This document shows, one piece after another, positions 2,112 through 57,926 of a stretch of 64,000 nt of DNA (its first letter is position 1; every line of letters starts with the position of its first letter). Under the pieces are notes generated by a model that was given only the letters and a program-made list of their open reading frames with translations, did not search any database and was not told where the DNA came from. The DNA is from a virus, in the IMG/VR virus record IMGVR_UViG_3300025383_001085, one strand, 5' to 3'. The position numbers and the translations under genes are program-made.

Positions 2112-3104
2112 TTACATATTGATTAAATTATTCTTAAATATTTCCCAAGCACGATCCCAAGTCCAACGCAAACTACCTTGGTATACACGATTTCTGTTTA
2201 ATTGTAAACAAGCTGAAACTGCATCTTCTAAATTTTCGTTTATGAATCCAGTTTCTCCTTGGTCTATTACATCTGCAGGTCCTTGGCAAGGATAAGCGGC
2301 AACAGGAGTTCCGCAGGCCATTGCTTCGATCATAACAATACCAAATGTTTCCCACCGACTAGGAAAAACAAACACTTCGGCATTGGCATAATAAAGTGCT
2401 AACTCAATCCCGGTCCTAAACCCGGTAAATGTTACGTCTGGATACTGTGCTCGATAAGTTTCCAGCATAGGACCATCGCCTACCATTATTTTTGCATATC
2501 CAGGGTAATCTAATTCAAAAAATGCTTCTAAGTTTTTTTCTTTGCTAACACGGCTTACACACAACAAATACTTTCCCGGAAAATTTTCTCTCAGTTCGGG
2601 TTTGAAAATATCACGGTCAACCCCACGTGTCCAAGGAACTATTTCTCCGTCAAATCCGTGTGCTTTTAATTCGGCTACCATACTGTCAGTAGTGGTTAAT
2701 ACTTTACCGCTATGCTTATGAAACCAGCGTACAAATCTCCAGGTAAGTGATTCGGGAATCCCAAATAGTTTGTTTAACCCTTCAGGAAACTTAGTATGAT
2801 AAGCGGTATTGTGCCTAATATTATGTAATGAAAGATGCCTTCTAGCCCACAGACCCAAAGGACCCTCTGTCGCGATATGGATATAATCCGGATTGATCTT
2901 CGCAATCTTCTTGCCCAAATTCCTGGGATAGCTAATCTTGACTTCGTTGTAGCCAGGACAACTAATGTAGCTGAACCACCCGGGATGCAGCACCACAACG
3001 TTATAACCGTCCAGAATCGCAAGTTTCTCAATATTTTTATATGTTGTGACAACGCCATTTATCTGCTCCGGTAAGTTGTCTGTGATTATTAGAATGGTTT
3101 TCAT
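2112..3104 (-). CDS. agt: GT4 glycosyltransferase, Agt-like (monoglycosyl-diacylglycerol synthase)
   Basis: TD..P.QINGVV, HIATEGPLG, YHTKFPE, WTRGVD, RVSKEKN, FPSRWETFGIVMIEAMACGTPV motifs; co-operonic with plcP-like gene. Confidence 0.75.
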   Translation of the reverse strand: MKTILIITDNLPEQINGVVTTYKNIEKLAILDGYNVVVLHPGWFSYISCPGYNEVKISYPRNLGKKIAKINPDYIHIATEGPLGLWARRHLSLHNIRHNTAYHTKFPEGLNKLFGIPESLTWRFVRWFHKHSGKVLTTTDSMVAELKAHGFDGEIVPWTRGVDRDIFKPELRENFPGKYLLCVSRVSKEKNLEAFFELDYPGYAKIMVGDGPMLETYRAQYPDVTFTGFRTGIELALYYANAEVFVFPSRWETFGIVMIEAMACGTPVAAYPCQGPADVIDQGETGFINENLEDAVSACLQLNRNRVYQGSLRWTWDRAWEIFKNNLINM

Positions 3105-3985
3105 TGAATCTTAAATTTCACATATTCCGTAATAATGTCAGCAACATTAACACTGCAATATTTTTCAAACCCAGCAAAGCCTGGATTACTATTAGCTTCG
3201 CATACACGGAATCCGCGTTTGTCAAATAATAAATCAATTCCTGCAATGTCTAGATTTAATACTCTGGAAGTTTCACGAGCTAGATATTCTATTTCTTCTG
3301 TTAACGGATAGTTCTCTCCAGTGCCGCCATTGGTAATATTAGCACGGAAGTCGCCGTCGGGTGCAGTACGTTTCATGGCACCTATCACTCGTCCTCCCAC
3401 TACTAGTACACGCAGATCTTCTCCGGGGTGATCATTTAGATATTCTTGTACAATCATGGTTTTCTTATTACCTAGATTGTCGATAAATTCCATTAATTTT
3501 TTATAGTCACGCTTACGTTCACAGAGATAAACACCTTCACCGTAACTGCCAGTAACCACTTTGACTACGCAAGGAAATCCAATATTTGCTTCTACCAAAC
3601 CATCGTCGATAGGTAATCTTACCATCATGGTGTTGGGGATAGGAATACTGGCTCTGCTTAAAATTTGGCTACTGCGCAATTTGTCTTTGACAATTTCGAT
3701 GGGCAAACTACCGTTGATACAAGGAACACCTGCTTGTTCAAAATGTCTTACTACTGCTAACTGGAATGGTAGTATACCTGCTCCTAACCTAACCAATACA
3801 AGTTTAGGTAGTTCCATATCCTGGCCTTTGTATTTGATGCCTTTGCGGATATCTCTATCCACGATAATATCAAAATCATCTGGGTGGCCCATCACGGCAT
3901 TGATTCCTTTTTCAGCAAAGGATTCTACTAGTTTGTTTGATTCGTATTCGTTACGATCCAGTTTTGTTAATATCAGTACTGTCAT
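3101..3985 (-). CDS. rimK: RimK-family ATP-grasp ligase
   Basis: KDKL, PCVVK..GSYGEGV, IVQEY, EDLRVLVVGG, FRANITNGG, AGIDLL, EANSNPG motifs. Confidence 0.85.
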   Translation of the reverse strand: MTVLILTKLDRNEYESNKLVESFAEKGINAVMGHPDDFDIIVDRDIRKGIKYKGQDMELPKLVLVRLGAGILPFQLAVVRHFEQAGVPCINGSLPIEIVKDKLRSSQILSRASIPIPNTMMVRLPIDDGLVEANIGFPCVVKVVTGSYGEGVYLCERKRDYKKLMEFIDNLGNKKTMIVQEYLNDHPGEDLRVLVVGGRVIGAMKRTAPDGDFRANITNGGTGENYPLTEEIEYLARETSRVLNLDIAGIDLLFDKRGFRVCEANSNPGFAGFEKYCSVNVADIITEYVKFKIQ

Positions 3986-4727
3986 TTGATTTAGTCCAAG
4001 TAATTATTTCCCATTCACCACTGTGATGTTCGACCAGTGCAGTGCAACTTTCAACCCAGTCGCCGTCATTCATATACATAACACCGTTGATGTATTTAAT
4101 CTCTGCGTGATGTATATGGCCACAAATTACTCCGTCGAAACCGCGTTTTTTACAATAGTCAGCTATTGTACGCTCAAATTGAAACATAAAGTCTATGGCT
4201 TTTTTGACTCGGTGTTTGAGGTATTTACTGAGACTCCAATACCCGAACCCCATACGATGACGTATCCAATTAAATCGGCTATTGATACCAAGAACGAAAT
4301 CATATGCTTTATCTCCAAGAAAACTTAACCAAGGCGCTAGTCTGGTGATCCCGTCAAACAAGTCACCGTGTGTTATAAGATAGTGTTTACCATCAGCACC
4401 TATATGTTCAATTTGATTACAAATTTCAACTTGTCCAAAACTAACACCATAAGGTATCATGGGACGCAGGAATTCATCATGGTTGCCAGCCACATACACA
4501 ACCCTAGTGCCCCGTTTAGCGTGACCAAGCACACGACGAACCACGTTAGTATGACTTTGTTTCCATCTGAGTTTGTTTTGTTGGATTTTCCAAGCATCTA
4601 TTATATCTCCTACTAGGTATAGGGTATTGCAGCTATTATGCTTGAGAAAATTATTTAGATGTTCAGCTTTACAATCTTTAGTACCTAAATGTACATCGCT
4701 AATAAAGATTGAGCGGTAAGTCTTCAT
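3951..4727 (-). CDS. plcP: Metallophosphoesterase, PlcP/LpxH2-like phospholipase C
   Basis: FISDVHLG, GDIID, GNHDEFLR, HGDLFD, YWSLS, CGHIHHAEI, NDGDWVESCTALVE motifs; adjacent Agt-like GT4 and upstream Pho box. Confidence 0.75.
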   Translation of the reverse strand: MKTYRSIFISDVHLGTKDCKAEHLNNFLKHNSCNTLYLVGDIIDAWKIQQNKLRWKQSHTNVVRRVLGHAKRGTRVVYVAGNHDEFLRPMIPYGVSFGQVEICNQIEHIGADGKHYLITHGDLFDGITRLAPWLSFLGDKAYDFVLGINSRFNWIRHRMGFGYWSLSKYLKHRVKKAIDFMFQFERTIADYCKKRGFDGVICGHIHHAEIKYINGVMYMNDGDWVESCTALVEHHSGEWEIITWTKSNDSTDINKTGS

Positions 4728-4750
4728 ATAGAGTATTTACCGCCCAATTG

Positions 4751-4768
4751 ATTACAGTTGTATTACAA
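4751..4768 (-). promoter_or_regulatory. Pho box (PhoB binding site) upstream of plcP
   Basis: Minus strand TTGTAAT-ACAA-CTGTAAT, an 11-bp-period direct repeat resembling CTGTCAT-N4-CTGT(C/A)A(C/T); 11 nt upstream of TAAATA (4734-4739). Confidence 0.65.
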
Positions 4769-4858: not shown

Positions 4859-5017
4859 TTAGATCCTCACAACTGTCCACTTTGCATCGAATGGTTTGCC
4901 TTCGGCGCGGTGTTTTAGTATCTTACGGTATTCTTCTTTACGAAGTTCCATAATTGCATCAGCATCGTGTCGGACGCAAGCCTGATACAACTTTCGAATT
5001 AACTTTCGTTGTTTCAT
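4859..5017 (-). CDS. 52-aa basic hypothetical protein
   Basis: [20 protein letters not shown]...; strong RBS AGGAGG; TATAAATA upstream. Confidence 0.65.
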
Positions 5018-5168: not shown

Positions 5169-5191
5169 AAAAAAGGCTCCGAAGAGCCTTT
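5169..5191 (-). terminator. Rho-independent terminator, cUUCGg loop
   Basis: AAAGGCTC-TTCG-GAGCCTTT followed by T tract on minus strand. Confidence 0.85.
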
Positions 5192-7187: not shown

Positions 7188-7490
7188 TTATTGTGCAAGC
7201 CTGGCGGCAATAATTTCATAGAAACTATCAAGCTCGCCACCGAATTTTCCCATTAGTTGGGGGATCAATAATCTACACTCGTTGTATTGATTGGCTTTGA
7301 ATTTATCAATAAAAAATTGATGCAGTTGTTTGTCTGCAGCTAAAGTAGGTAGTTCAGTTAACAAGATTTTTTCTTGTGGCACCACACAGTATGCAGTAGT
7401 AGCCTTACCATCTTGTTCAAATGTTTCCAACTCTAAAACAGTATATTCATTTTGCAGAATTTCTGCAGGTTCGCCTAGGATAATATACAA
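7188..7490 (-). CDS. Hypothetical protein
   Basis: 100-aa ORF tightly packed in operon. Confidence 0.65.
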   Translation of the reverse strand: MYIILGEPAEILQNEYTVLELETFEQDGKATTAYCVVPQEKILLTELPTLAADKQLHQFFIDKFKANQYNECRLLIPQLMGKFGGELDSFYEIIAARLAQ

Positions 7491-7900
7491 TCTAATTCTC
7501 CCAATGCATCGGTAATTTGATACAAGCTGATGTCGTGATCCTCGTAGCCTTCGATTACCATATCCAAGTAATGTCTACTGGGCCAACGATGCTCGTGTAG
7601 ATCTTTCATATAGTAAATCATAGCACGAATGATTCTACCATCGTGATTTACTTTTACTTCTTTTTTGCCGTAAAAATTCGGATAGCCCTCAAGGCGATCT
7701 AAACTCTTTTCGCATTCATCGGTAATTGACCATAATGCACACTCCATTGTTTCGCCAGGTGCTTCTACTACATCACAAAAAGTTCTAAAAGCCAATTTGT
7801 GATTTGGTAGAGTCACTTTGCCTAAACTACGAGCCTTGGGACATCGTTGTTCCATACCGTATAGATTAGAATTCATACCATAAGCAAGATAATATTTCAT
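7475..7900 (-). CDS. Gamma-glutamylcyclotransferase (GGCT/AIG2-like)
   Basis: YLAYGMNSN, LDRLEGYP..Y, PS..YL..V.EGY motifs. Confidence 0.8.
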   Translation of the reverse strand: MKYYLAYGMNSNLYGMEQRCPKARSLGKVTLPNHKLAFRTFCDVVEAPGETMECALWSITDECEKSLDRLEGYPNFYGKKEVKVNHDGRIIRAMIYYMKDLHEHRWPSRHYLDMVIEGYEDHDISLYQITDALGELDCILS

Positions 7901-8825: not shown

Positions 8826-9284
8826 TTACTTGGTAAATGTGATTGCAATTTTCTTGGGTTTTTGTTCTTCGGGAACAATCAACTCAAGTGCAACACTCAA
8901 AATACCGTTTTGAACTGTTGCAGCACGCACTTCTACGTTTTCCGCTAGGGGGAAATTACGTGTAAAGTTGCGGTTGCTAATACCTTTGTGTAGATATTTC
9001 AATTCTTTGGTATCGTCTTTTTTTGATTTCTCAGCTCTTTCACCTTTTACGGTTAAGATATTTTCTTTGAGTTCCACATCGATCTCATTTTGCTTGAAAC
9101 CGGCAACTGCAACTTCTACCACAAAATGTGTGTCATCCAATTGGATTACATTATGCGGAGGATAGTTATCCGAAGTACGATTAGAAGCAAAGCTACGCTC
9201 TAATTCTTCAAACATACGGTCGAAACCGATAGCGTGACGATGTAAAGCAGGTAAGTCGAGAGTTTGGAATGTAAATTGTGTCAT
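8826..9284 (-). CDS. ibpA: Small heat-shock protein Hsp20 (IbpA-like)
   Basis: IGFDRMF, NYPPHN, AVAGF, YLHKGIS.RNF.R.F.LA, NGIL; AAGGAG RBS before ATG 9284. Confidence 0.9.
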   Translation of the reverse strand: MTQFTFQTLDLPALHRHAIGFDRMFEELERSFASNRTSDNYPPHNVIQLDDTHFVVEVAVAGFKQNEIDVELKENILTVKGERAEKSKKDDTKELKYLHKGISNRNFTRNFPLAENVEVRAATVQNGILSVALELIVPEEQKPKKIAITFTK

Positions 9285-9312
9285 GTTTTTCTCCTTAATA
9301 AGCAAGTATGAC
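9280..9312 (-). promoter_or_regulatory. ROSE-like RNA thermometer hairpin sequestering SD and AUG of hsp20
   Basis: GUCAU-A-CUUGCUU-AUU-AAGGAG-AAAAAC-AUGAC: UUGCU pairs with the SD leaving a bulged G; GUCAU pairs with AUGAC. Confidence 0.65.
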
Positions 9313-9350
9313 GTTTGAAAATGTAGACCCCACCCGGGCATCTACAGCTG

Positions 9351-19688: not shown

Positions 19689-20003
19689 TTATTTAACAAT
19701 AGGACCTTTACTCATAGTTTGTATACCAGTTGTGGTCTGCAAGTAATGATCCTCTAATGCTTTGATCGTAGTACTGTGCATCATAACGTGCTCAGCTTTT
19801 AGCTCTACATTTTTATTTATATCAGCAGAAAATAGGCTCTGGATCAAGCCTAATCCTTGATTACTGGGCATTACTGTACAGGGCTTATGAATGGTCCACC
19901 CGAATCCAGTTTGATCTACAATTTTTGCTACGATCTCGTCACCATTGACCAGTTTGAACGCAACAATCTCCCCTACTGCATAGTTTGTCTTATTGATTAA
20001 CAT
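19689..20003 (-). CDS. Conserved T4-like hypothetical protein (Sm-like)
   Basis: KLVNGDEIVAK...Y...TTGI pattern. Confidence 0.6.
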   Translation of the reverse strand: MLINKTNYAVGEIVAFKLVNGDEIVAKIVDQTGFGWTIHKPCTVMPSNQGLGLIQSLFSADINKNVELKAEHVMMHSTTIKALEDHYLQTTTGIQTMSKGPIVK

Positions 20004-23696: not shown

Positions 23697-24143
23697 TTAT
23701 TGTATTTTTTCTAAATTTAGATCTTCGGCTGTTACCAAAGATACCAACTGTAACTCTTTTGCAATTTGTGTAGTATTTACAACCTCGTCGTGTATATAAT
23801 TAAGCACATATTTTCCTTGCTCAACAAATACTAAATTATAGTGTTCTTTGGTTTCTGGATCATTATATACTCTTATTTCTAAGTCAGGCTGATGGCTGCT
23901 CAAGTACAAAGTATACACTATTCCAAGTGCTTTTGCAAGATCACAGTAATAATTTTCGTAAATTAATTCCCAAGGTCCGGGCCATTCACCAATATTATCG
24001 GTGTATAAGTAGTGTGCTACATAGGGTGCGTAGCTCCAAAGGTGCTGAGTATCTTGTACTGCTTCATTAAATGATTTTTGGCTAATAGATTTTCGAAAAT
24101 CCTGCCAACAACGAAGCCTCTCGTCTGGTAGTAGATTCCACAT
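23697..24143 (-). CDS. Hypothetical protein
   Basis: 148 aa; WPGPWELI..N.YC motif. Confidence 0.65.
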   Translation of the reverse strand: MWNLLPDERLRCWQDFRKSISQKSFNEAVQDTQHLWSYAPYVAHYLYTDNIGEWPGPWELIYENYYCDLAKALGIVYTLYLSSHQPDLEIRVYNDPETKEHYNLVFVEQGKYVLNYIHDEVVNTTQIAKELQLVSLVTAEDLNLEKIQ

Positions 24144-56563: not shown

Positions 56564-56719
56564 TTATTCTTCGCTTTTGTTATCAGCTTCTAAATATTGC
56601 TTTAGTACTCTCATTGCCTTACGACTGGTATCGTAAACAAATTCTTTGCTTTCGTCTTCGGTATTGACGACTAAGATGAAGCCATTTGCGGCTTTACGGA
56701 TTTCAATTGATTCAAACAT
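56564..56719 (-). CDS. Small hypothetical protein
   Basis: MFESIEIRKAANGFILVV. Confidence 0.6.
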   Translation of the reverse strand: MFESIEIRKAANGFILVVNTEDESKEFVYDTSRKAMRVLKQYLEADNKSEE

Positions 56720-56750
56720 AGTAGACCTTTGTGTGGTTAAGTTATACATA

Positions 56751-57191: not shown

Positions 57192-57926
57192 TTAGACTTT
57201 GACTATCATTTCCGCAGATAATTCTTCGTCTGTCAAGAATGGTGTCATATCGTGTAACCCAGCTTGCTTGCCATTTTTCAATGCCTGTGCTGGCAAAATT
57301 TCCTGTTCGGCTTTGCAAATACAGTTGATGATAGCAGGACCTGGTGCTGATAATAATTGGGCAAAGTCAGCTAATCCCGCAACACCATTGACTTCTGCAT
57401 AACCAATTTCAAACGAATCTGCAATGTCTTTGAATTTAGGGAACCAAAGTCCAGTTTCGTTACTAGTACCAAACACTCGACCGTTAAAGTATTTGGTTTG
57501 TGTGTTTCTAATACTCAAGTATCCACTGTTATTCAAAATAATAAACTTGATATTTAGGTTGTGTTGGCGAACAACTGCTAGCTCCTGTAAGTTACTCATA
57601 AAACTACCGTCACCGATGATACTAATAACATTGCCTCCAGCAAGTGCCACTCCAATGGCCGCAGGCAGTGCCCATCCCATATCAGCTTGAGCAGGGTTAA
57701 ACACAAATCTTTGACCTGCTTTGGCCTTCAATGCTACTGGGCCTGCGTAGCTGATACTGCCAGCATCTCCCATTAACACTTGGTATGCACCGCTGTGTTG
57801 GTTAATTGCATCTAATACTGCGTAGATATTCACCGTACCATCGGCATCATCAAAGTATTCGGGCTGAATAACTGGCCAAGCAGATTTCCAATCATTACAT
57901 TTATTGATCCATTCTTCACGTGTCAT
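57192..57926 (-). CDS. TPP-dependent enzyme, C-terminal (diphosphate-binding) half; ALS/YerE-like
   Basis: MGWALPAAIG, GDGSFMSNLQEL...LNNSGY TPP motif. Confidence 0.85.
   Translation of the reverse strand: MTREEWINKCNDWKSAWPVIQPEYFDDADGTVNIYAVLDAINQHSGAYQVLMGDAGSISYAGPVALKAKAGQRFVFNPAQADMGWALPAAIGVALAGGNVISIIGDGSFMSNLQELAVVRQHNLNIKFIILNNSGYLSIRNTQTKYFNGRVFGTSNETGLWFPKFKDIADSFEIGYAEVNGVAGLADFAQLLSAPGPAIINCICKAEQEILPAQALKNGKQAGLHDMTPFLTDEELSAEMIVKV

Follow-up and report, generated by a model that had tools for sequence, protein, structure and literature searches.

The 64,000-nucleotide stretch of IMG/VR virus record IMGVR_UViG_3300025383_001085 (hereafter, the window) carries, at positions 2112-4768 on the minus strand, a Pho-box-like repeat followed by three genes, plcP, rimK and agt. 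We consider it likely that this module is a phage auxiliary operon for the renovation of membrane lipids under phosphate starvation, a function predicted from the gene identities, family placement, synteny and box conservation established in this analysis. The first gene, plcP (P0001, 3951-4727, minus strand), encodes a 258-aa putative phospholipase C of the PlcP family, a metallophosphoesterase that resembles LpxH and has a helical cap. It is followed on the same strand by rimK (P0002, 3101-3985), which encodes a 294-aa RimK-family ATP-grasp alpha-L-glutamate ligase, and by agt (P0003, 2112-3104), which encodes a 330-aa predicted diacylglycerol glycosyltransferase of the Agt/GTcp type, an EX7E variant within family GT4. 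The gene rimK overlaps both neighbours, plcP by 35 nt and agt by 4 nt (ATGA), and from these overlapping codons it is apparently co-translated with both. An initial annotation, made from the letters alone, had described three overlapping genes for a metallophosphoesterase, an ATP-grasp ligase and a GT4 enzyme; the reading frames, the overlaps and the Pfam and NCBIfam domains (Metallophos in P0001, RimK and Rimk_N in P0002, GT4 domains in P0003) were all found.

Several indirect tests point to P0001 being a PlcP-family protein with predicted phospholipase C activity, not the lipid A enzyme LpxH. The metallophosphoesterase motifs DxH, GD, GNHD, H and GHxH are present, Pfam Metallophos matches, and the metal ligands D11, H13, D41, N82, H83, H120, H204 and H206 are invariant in an alignment of P0001 with 31 relatives. 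Against the LpxH models, P0001 scores 48.7 bits on NF003743 (cut-off 134) and 34.5 bits on TIGR01854 (cut-off 190), failing both. True LpxH proteins in Pseudomonas and Limnohabitans genomes reach 334 and 227 bits on the LpxH model, and the separate plcP-like paralogs in the same genomes reach 54.5 and 43.8 bits. In an Azospirillum genome only the plcP-like paralog occurs, at 51.5 bits. P0001 scores like the bacterial plcP-like paralog and unlike true LpxH. A maximum-likelihood tree built from 134 sequences sets LpxH far from P0001, at the end of a very long branch, and unites P0001 with 49 viral representatives in one clade (SH-aLRT 100). This clade is nested among proteobacterial PlcP-like proteins, beside gammaproteobacterial ones and the copies from phages Mosig and S-SRM01. 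The PlcP type claimed for the metallophosphoesterase at the outset is thus borne out by profile scores and tree placement, both away from LpxH and inside the proteobacterial PlcP-like group. The bacterial relatives number at least hundreds in species-representative genomes, and the best 80 are almost all from Proteobacteria, at 48-57% identity. Since pairwise identity among the validated PlcPs from P. aeruginosa, S. meliloti and Phaeobacter is itself only 46-47% (PMC8528852), P0001 lies within the family's own range. It also has the features by which PlcP has been recognized (PMC4796936), namely a Pho box ahead of the gene and an operon shared with a gene for making a phosphorus-free lipid. 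The likeness to LpxH (UDP-2,3-diacylglucosamine diphosphatase) is one of fold, metal ligands and helical lipid cap. An AlphaFold model of P0001 (pLDDT 88) matches LpxH structures over the full length at 16-19% identity, and a two-helix insertion at residues 126-194 corresponds to the LpxH lipid-binding cap.

The glycosyltransferase, as judged by sequence comparison, is a variant of the Agt/GTcp clade of GT4. In bacteria, plcP followed by agt is known as the "type 2" arrangement (PMC4796936), and 48-53 of the 80 bacterial loci show it, with a same-strand GT4 homolog, 40-46% identical to P0003, directly downstream of plcP. P0003 has the GT4 GT-B domains and the length (∼330 aa) of the clade and is well above 25% identical to its members. 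The characterised SAR11 enzyme GTcp carries the motifs GRVAxEKN and FPSxTDTFG (bioRxiv 10.1101/2021.03.25.437072); in our alignment the plcP-linked bacterial GT4s carry both, and the phage GT4s have the versions (S/A)RVSKEKN and FPS(R/Q)WETFG. The catalytic His104 of GTcp has its equivalent in H103 of P0003, and the diacylglycerol-contact residues Thr162, Arg163 and Trp320 correspond to T159, R160 and W316, which are invariant in 26 phage copies. The His104-Asp256 catalytic dyad of the clade is only half kept, with the His retained and the Asp replaced by Glu, and it is because of this replacement that we call P0003 a variant. The phage GT4s form a single clade with 100% support. The proposal that the GT4 is Agt therefore stands in that it groups with the plcP-linked GT4s and keeps the diacylglycerol-contact residues, and needs correcting at the catalytic site, where the phage clade has Glu for Asp.

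Upstream of plcP, the direct repeat TTGTAAT-ACAA-CTGTAAT (4751-4768, minus strand; 11-bp period) occupies the -35 position, and a -10-like element, TAAATA (4734-4739, minus strand), lies 11 nt past it and 6 nt ahead of the plcP ATG. The arrangement is that of a Pho box, in which two 7-bp direct repeats with an 11-bp period replace the -35 element about 10 nt upstream of the -10. The exact pattern TGTAAT-N5-TGTAAT occurs once in the 64 kb, at this site, and the looser TGTMAY-N5-TGYMAY has one further match in the window, at 23749 on the plus strand. With two mismatches allowed, the window holds 22 matches against 18 expected, so a single Pho box by itself says little, and it is conservation that gives the repeat its significance. 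The upstream regions of viral plcP genes are otherwise unalike, yet 58 of 76 distinct ones have TAAATA near the start, and in 43 of 46 relatives the ATG follows TAAATA after 4-7 nt. Among the 58 TAAATA-anchored regions, 33 contain an exact TGTMAY-N5-TGYMAY, either 11 nt (21 regions) or 21-22 nt (12 regions) ahead of TAAATA. The box with at most one mismatch is found in 27 of these 58 regions, compared with 2 of 1160 shuffles. Several of the regions read TTGTCACATATTTGTCAC, which is nearly the published consensus, CTGTCATNNNNCTGTCAT (PMC8528852). The Pho-box-like repeat reported in the initial annotation is therefore present, and related viral plcP genes keep it ahead of their starts although their flanks are unrelated; we infer that the plcP promoter depends on PhoB. 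The strict pattern lies upstream of only 4 of the 80 bacterial plcP genes; therefore, the phage box cannot be matched to one host group.

The TAAATA element appears to have a wider use. No Shine-Dalgarno sequence precedes the plcP ATG, and the plcP mRNA is probably leaderless. In the window, TAAATA followed by 3-9 nt and ATG is found at 12 gene starts, and over the whole window TAAATA favours the coding strand by 39 to 17. On the minus strand, NNTAAATA followed by 3-9 nt and ATG is located at 57193, 49031, 29732, 29188, 28771 and 27528, and further at 19821, 12925, 9358, 6842, 4741 and 2113. These counts suggest that TAAATA is a phage-wide promoter element giving very short or absent leaders. 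If TAAATA is general to the phage, the Pho box is the feature specific to plcP.

The module is common in viruses. At least 599 IMG/VR contigs, some longer than 500 kb, encode a PlcP that is 82-89% identical to P0001, and a large protein collection contains at least 8000 relatives (E <= 1e-10), of which the best 120 are 83-89% identical. The bacterial PlcPs, by comparison, reach at most 57% identity among the best 80 species-representative matches. A survey of plcP-agt synteny, suggested with the initial annotation and run here, found a glycosyltransferase right after plcP in all 79 viral loci with enough downstream sequence, of type GT4 in 30 and GT2 in 49. The GT2 partner is 237-240 aa long with GT21-family matches (e.g., L022:6904-7620, L030:1333-2046 and L032:6904-7626), and no homolog of it was found in the 80 bacterial plcP loci. 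On the PlcP tree, the type of partner switched at least five times, an approximate count from a quick tree. Because two unrelated transferase families occupy the same slot, we would argue for selection that maintains a sugar transferase behind PlcP. As phage PlcP and phage GT4 each form a single clade, the module would also seem to have been long resident in phages. Among 50,697 GenBank phage records, a protein search found plcP only in Mosig, in S-SRM01 (two records) and in two uncultured records. The cultured phages with plcP are thus Pelagibacter phage Mosig and Synechococcus phage S-SRM01 only, and neither has an adjacent glycosyltransferase. In Mosig, plcP divergently adjoins pstS. The intergenic region between these two genes (L001, 4851-5000) has two AAACTTAAC repeats 22 nt apart and AATAAATA five nt ahead of the plcP ATG, and may be a SAR11-type phosphate-control site. 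With the Mosig PstS as query, neither the window nor the viral flanks yielded a pstS.

The initial annotation had placed rimK inside a PlcP-(RimK)-Agt operon. The gene is indeed present between the pair, but it is an optional accessory of the module and not a core part, because only 2 of the 80 closest plcP loci, and none of the 80 bacterial loci, have it. P0002 is a full-length RimK, with 164 bits on PF08443, 46 bits on PF18030 (the pre-ATP-grasp N-domain) and 218 bits on TIGR00768 (cut-off 143); the solved RimK from Pseudomonas is a match at E = 8.5e-47, and identity to a RimK encoded in a Pseudomonas genome is 36%. Both domains are shared with the S6 L-glutamate ligase RimK of E. coli and Pseudomonas, from which P0002 differs in scoring below the S6-ligase equivalog cut-off (NF007764, 154.6 bits against 331), in being phage-encoded and in its position inside a Pho-box operon. 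Among 26 viral contigs that bear a RimK (71-91% identical), 18 have it directly after plcP, mostly with overlapping codons. The PlcP alleles beside it vary from 52 to 85% identity to P0001, and the genes that follow it encode a GT4, a GT2, an OlsB-like N-acyltransferase, a CHASE2 cyclase or a 312-aa viral protein.

Some of these loci deserve a closer description. In L183 (4885-5544), plcP-rimK is followed by the OlsB-like N-acyltransferase, of the aminolipid synthase family but below its curated cut-off, and then by a CHASE2-guanylate cyclase; the N-acyltransferase would add a third type of partner for making phosphorus-free lipid. Two contigs of 340 and 146 kb (L199 and L200, 3249-6891) read plcP-rimK-CHASE2 cyclase with no glycosyltransferase between, and their PlcP is of a divergent type (52-55% identical to P0001), as in L170, L171, L181 and L183. 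The protein of 312-314 aa that follows RimK in L201 (4885-5823) and L178 (4909-5853) is found only in viruses and has no Pfam match. It was compared as a possible GT4 relative and proved unrelated; a GGxxxLAHxLxxP stretch and an Atlas lead weakly suggest a GT9-like fold. On a 362-kb contig (L197:3752-4882), where no plcP is near, the gene directly ahead of RimK is IF1-like (eIF-1a in Pfam), a hint that RimK may act in translation. Several viral RimK copies sit in unrelated contexts, and no consistent Pho box was found upstream of RimK-only loci. One 61-aa open reading frame (ORF) of the window (56564-56749, minus strand) ends in ...ADNKSEE, resembling the RimK-extended S6 tail, with about 0.7 expected by chance; this was the only protein with an S6-like tail in the window, no more than chance would give. 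On the simplest reading, a RimK placed behind a Pho-box promoter gains starvation-linked expression and acts on the translation apparatus.

From these observations we infer a scheme for PhoB binding, the enzyme activities, the sugar donor, the benefit in phosphorus and the target of RimK. In a phosphate-starved proteobacterial host, phosphorylated PhoB would bind 4751-4768 and activate transcription at the weak TAAATA element, with the transcript probably starting at or next to the plcP ATG. PlcP, a predicted binuclear-metal enzyme with an LpxH-like lipid-binding cap, would cleave glycerophospholipids, releasing a phospho-alcohol head group and leaving diacylglycerol, onto which the Agt-type GT4 would move a hexose or hexuronic acid from a UDP-sugar. 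The bilayer would in this way be refilled by a phosphorus-free glycolipid. The head-group phosphorus would pass through host phosphatases to feed the large DNA demand of the phage, which is to say that the phage probably mines the host membrane for phosphorus. The co-transcribed RimK would most likely polyglutamylate S6, or else some other protein whose C-terminal tail is acidic, retuning translation in the starved cell. A bolder version, which we think improbable, is that through RimK, with its recurrent place behind the Pho-box plcP, the phage links the mining of membrane phosphorus to a remodelling of the host ribosome, set off by starvation and carried out by S6 polyglutamylation, which might favour its many TAAATA-driven, apparently leaderless mRNAs; or else RimK makes a new glutamylated lipid head group.

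A number of observations weigh against this scheme. A clear box is seen in only about half of the related upstream regions, and, TAAATA being general to the phage, transcription may be independent of PhoB. The catalytic Asp256 of GTcp is Glu (E252 in P0003) in 24 of 26 phage GT4s, and in GTcp itself D256E causes a loss of more than 90% of the activity (bioRxiv 10.1101/2021.03.25.437072). The Glu, however, restores the general EX7E motif of GT4 and is also seen in 6 of 52 bacterial partners. The Agt placement compared P0003 with plcP-linked bacterial GT4s rather than with experimentally validated Agt sequences. The PlcP comparison likewise used genus-level Pseudomonas relatives, not the validated SMc00171, MED193_17359, PB7211_983 and PA3219; one such relative (L146) has an adjacent GT4. 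In some related phages, plcP-rimK occurs without a glycosyltransferase, and neither pstS nor phoA nor another phosphatase was found in the window.

The last of these points also bears on a different reading, in which the module mainly alters the envelope, whether to block superinfection, to change a receptor or to stabilise the membrane until lysis, and does not serve phosphorus supply. There is no phosphatase or transporter gene near the module in the window, and three papers report that lipid remodelling alters phage attachment and predator interactions (PMC9938194, PMC9457565 and PMC9804370). However, the conserved Pho box and the pstS neighbour in Mosig link plcP to phosphate status, and the two readings are not exclusive; we regard a mainly envelope-directed function as unlikely. 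The RimK protein could instead be an integral step of the lipid pathway, for example adding glutamate to the carboxylate of a glucuronosyl-lipid or to the released head group. ATP-grasp enzymes activate carboxylates, and RimK keeps its place behind plcP in the 18 contigs described above even as PlcP alleles and downstream partners differ. Its rarity in the closest plcP loci and absence from the bacterial ones speak against such a step, as do its complete RimK architecture with the N-domain, its family score and structural match, and the copies that lie beside the IF1-like gene without plcP or in unrelated contexts. We judge a part for RimK in lipid chemistry less probable than one in translation, and an integral pathway step distinctly unlikely.

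The remaining two readings concern the identity and the origin of the genes. Source annotations name the phosphoesterase LpxH, and LpxH is its closest solved fold, so the module might be thought to modify lipopolysaccharide (LPS). The score of 48.7 bits against a cut-off of 134, the separate paralog in genomes with true LpxH, the long tree branch, the low identity to LpxH structures and the conserved diacylglycerol-type glycosyltransferase partners make this very improbable. That the segment is host DNA brought in by misassembly, or belongs to a bacterial contig taken for a virus, could be supposed from the bacterial type of its genes. Phage genes nevertheless flank the module on both sides and on the same strand, the guanine-plus-cytosine (GC) content is even over the whole window, with the module matching the remainder, and bacterial identity of at most 57% in the best 80 matches stands against 82-89% for viral contigs. 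The module and the genes flanking it recur together in independent viral contigs, the flanking genes at ∼70-75% nucleotide identity, so misassembly can be set aside; we give a host origin next to no weight. That the module is genuine phage DNA, as first proposed, is thus upheld, and the lipid-renovation operon remains the reading we prefer.

The window around the module is that of a phage, with genes for a class I ribonucleotide reductase, a DnaB-like helicase, a primase, an exonuclease and an endolysin, together with those for virion proteins and a collagen-like tail fibre; almost all of these genes share one strand. The helicase is closest (∼50% identity) to those of the jumbo phages PA5oct, Atu_ph07 and Phosso. 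Judged from this, the genome carrying the module is a jumbo phage and not a classical T4; of the "T4-like" lytic genome claimed earlier, the phage nature stands, on its ribonucleotide reductase, helicase and virion genes, and "T4-like" is only loosely right. No tRNA genes were found in the window, and a DNA search of the 50,697 GenBank phage records gave no match to it. Upstream of the operon, an intrinsic-terminator-like hairpin (5172-5191, minus strand) closes the preceding unit. Between the hairpin and the Pho box lie a 52-aa ORF (4859-5017, minus strand) and then a 28-aa hydrophobic ORF. The former is often directly upstream of phage plcP, with homologs at most 150 nt upstream in 19 of 98 viral loci, and may be a conserved plcP companion. 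A few kb further upstream, on the minus strand, are a gamma-glutamyl cyclotransferase-like gene (7475-7900) and an Hsp20 gene (8826-9341).

The nearest known system is the PhoB-regulated plcP-agt operon of bacteria, for which our examples were S. meliloti, Phaeobacter MED193, SAR11 HTCC7211, P. aeruginosa PA3219-PA3218, M. trichosporium OB3b and B. cenocepacia. The phage module has the same two families in the same order with a Pho box upstream, and its identity to them is within the family range. It differs in being on a lytic-type jumbo phage with genes in clades of their own, in the Asp-to-Glu replacement in the catalytic site of Agt, in the rimK inserted between the pair and in a promoter that uses TAAATA and is apparently leaderless. 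A second comparison is with cyanophages, in which Zeng and Chisholm reportedly found in 2012 that pstS and phoA are under host PhoBR control. Here, too, a phage gene would be wired to the phosphate-starvation regulator of the host, and in Mosig plcP adjoins pstS itself. The cyanophage genes, however, import or release external phosphate, and the plcP module would recycle the cell's own membrane phosphorus. Outside subscription journals, which the search did not cover, we found no published description of the phage module and none joining PlcP with auxiliary metabolic genes. Papers that name both PlcP and phage deal with host lipid remodelling, and the Mosig genome announcement does not discuss plcP. 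We see in the module the phage counterpart of a known bacterial pathway, with variants of its own; it is widespread and apparently undescribed in print.

Membrane phospholipid is a sizeable store of cellular phosphorus, aquatic microbes are often limited for this element, and the DNA of a jumbo phage needs much of it. Virome papers place the gene under LPS biosynthesis as "lpxH", and with surveys labelling it so, viral effects on lipid and phosphorus cycling would be misread. With at least 599 viral contigs and thousands of metagenomic protein clusters, the module is common, and if our reading is true, it would constitute a new class of auxiliary metabolic genes, one that recycles internal rather than external phosphorus.

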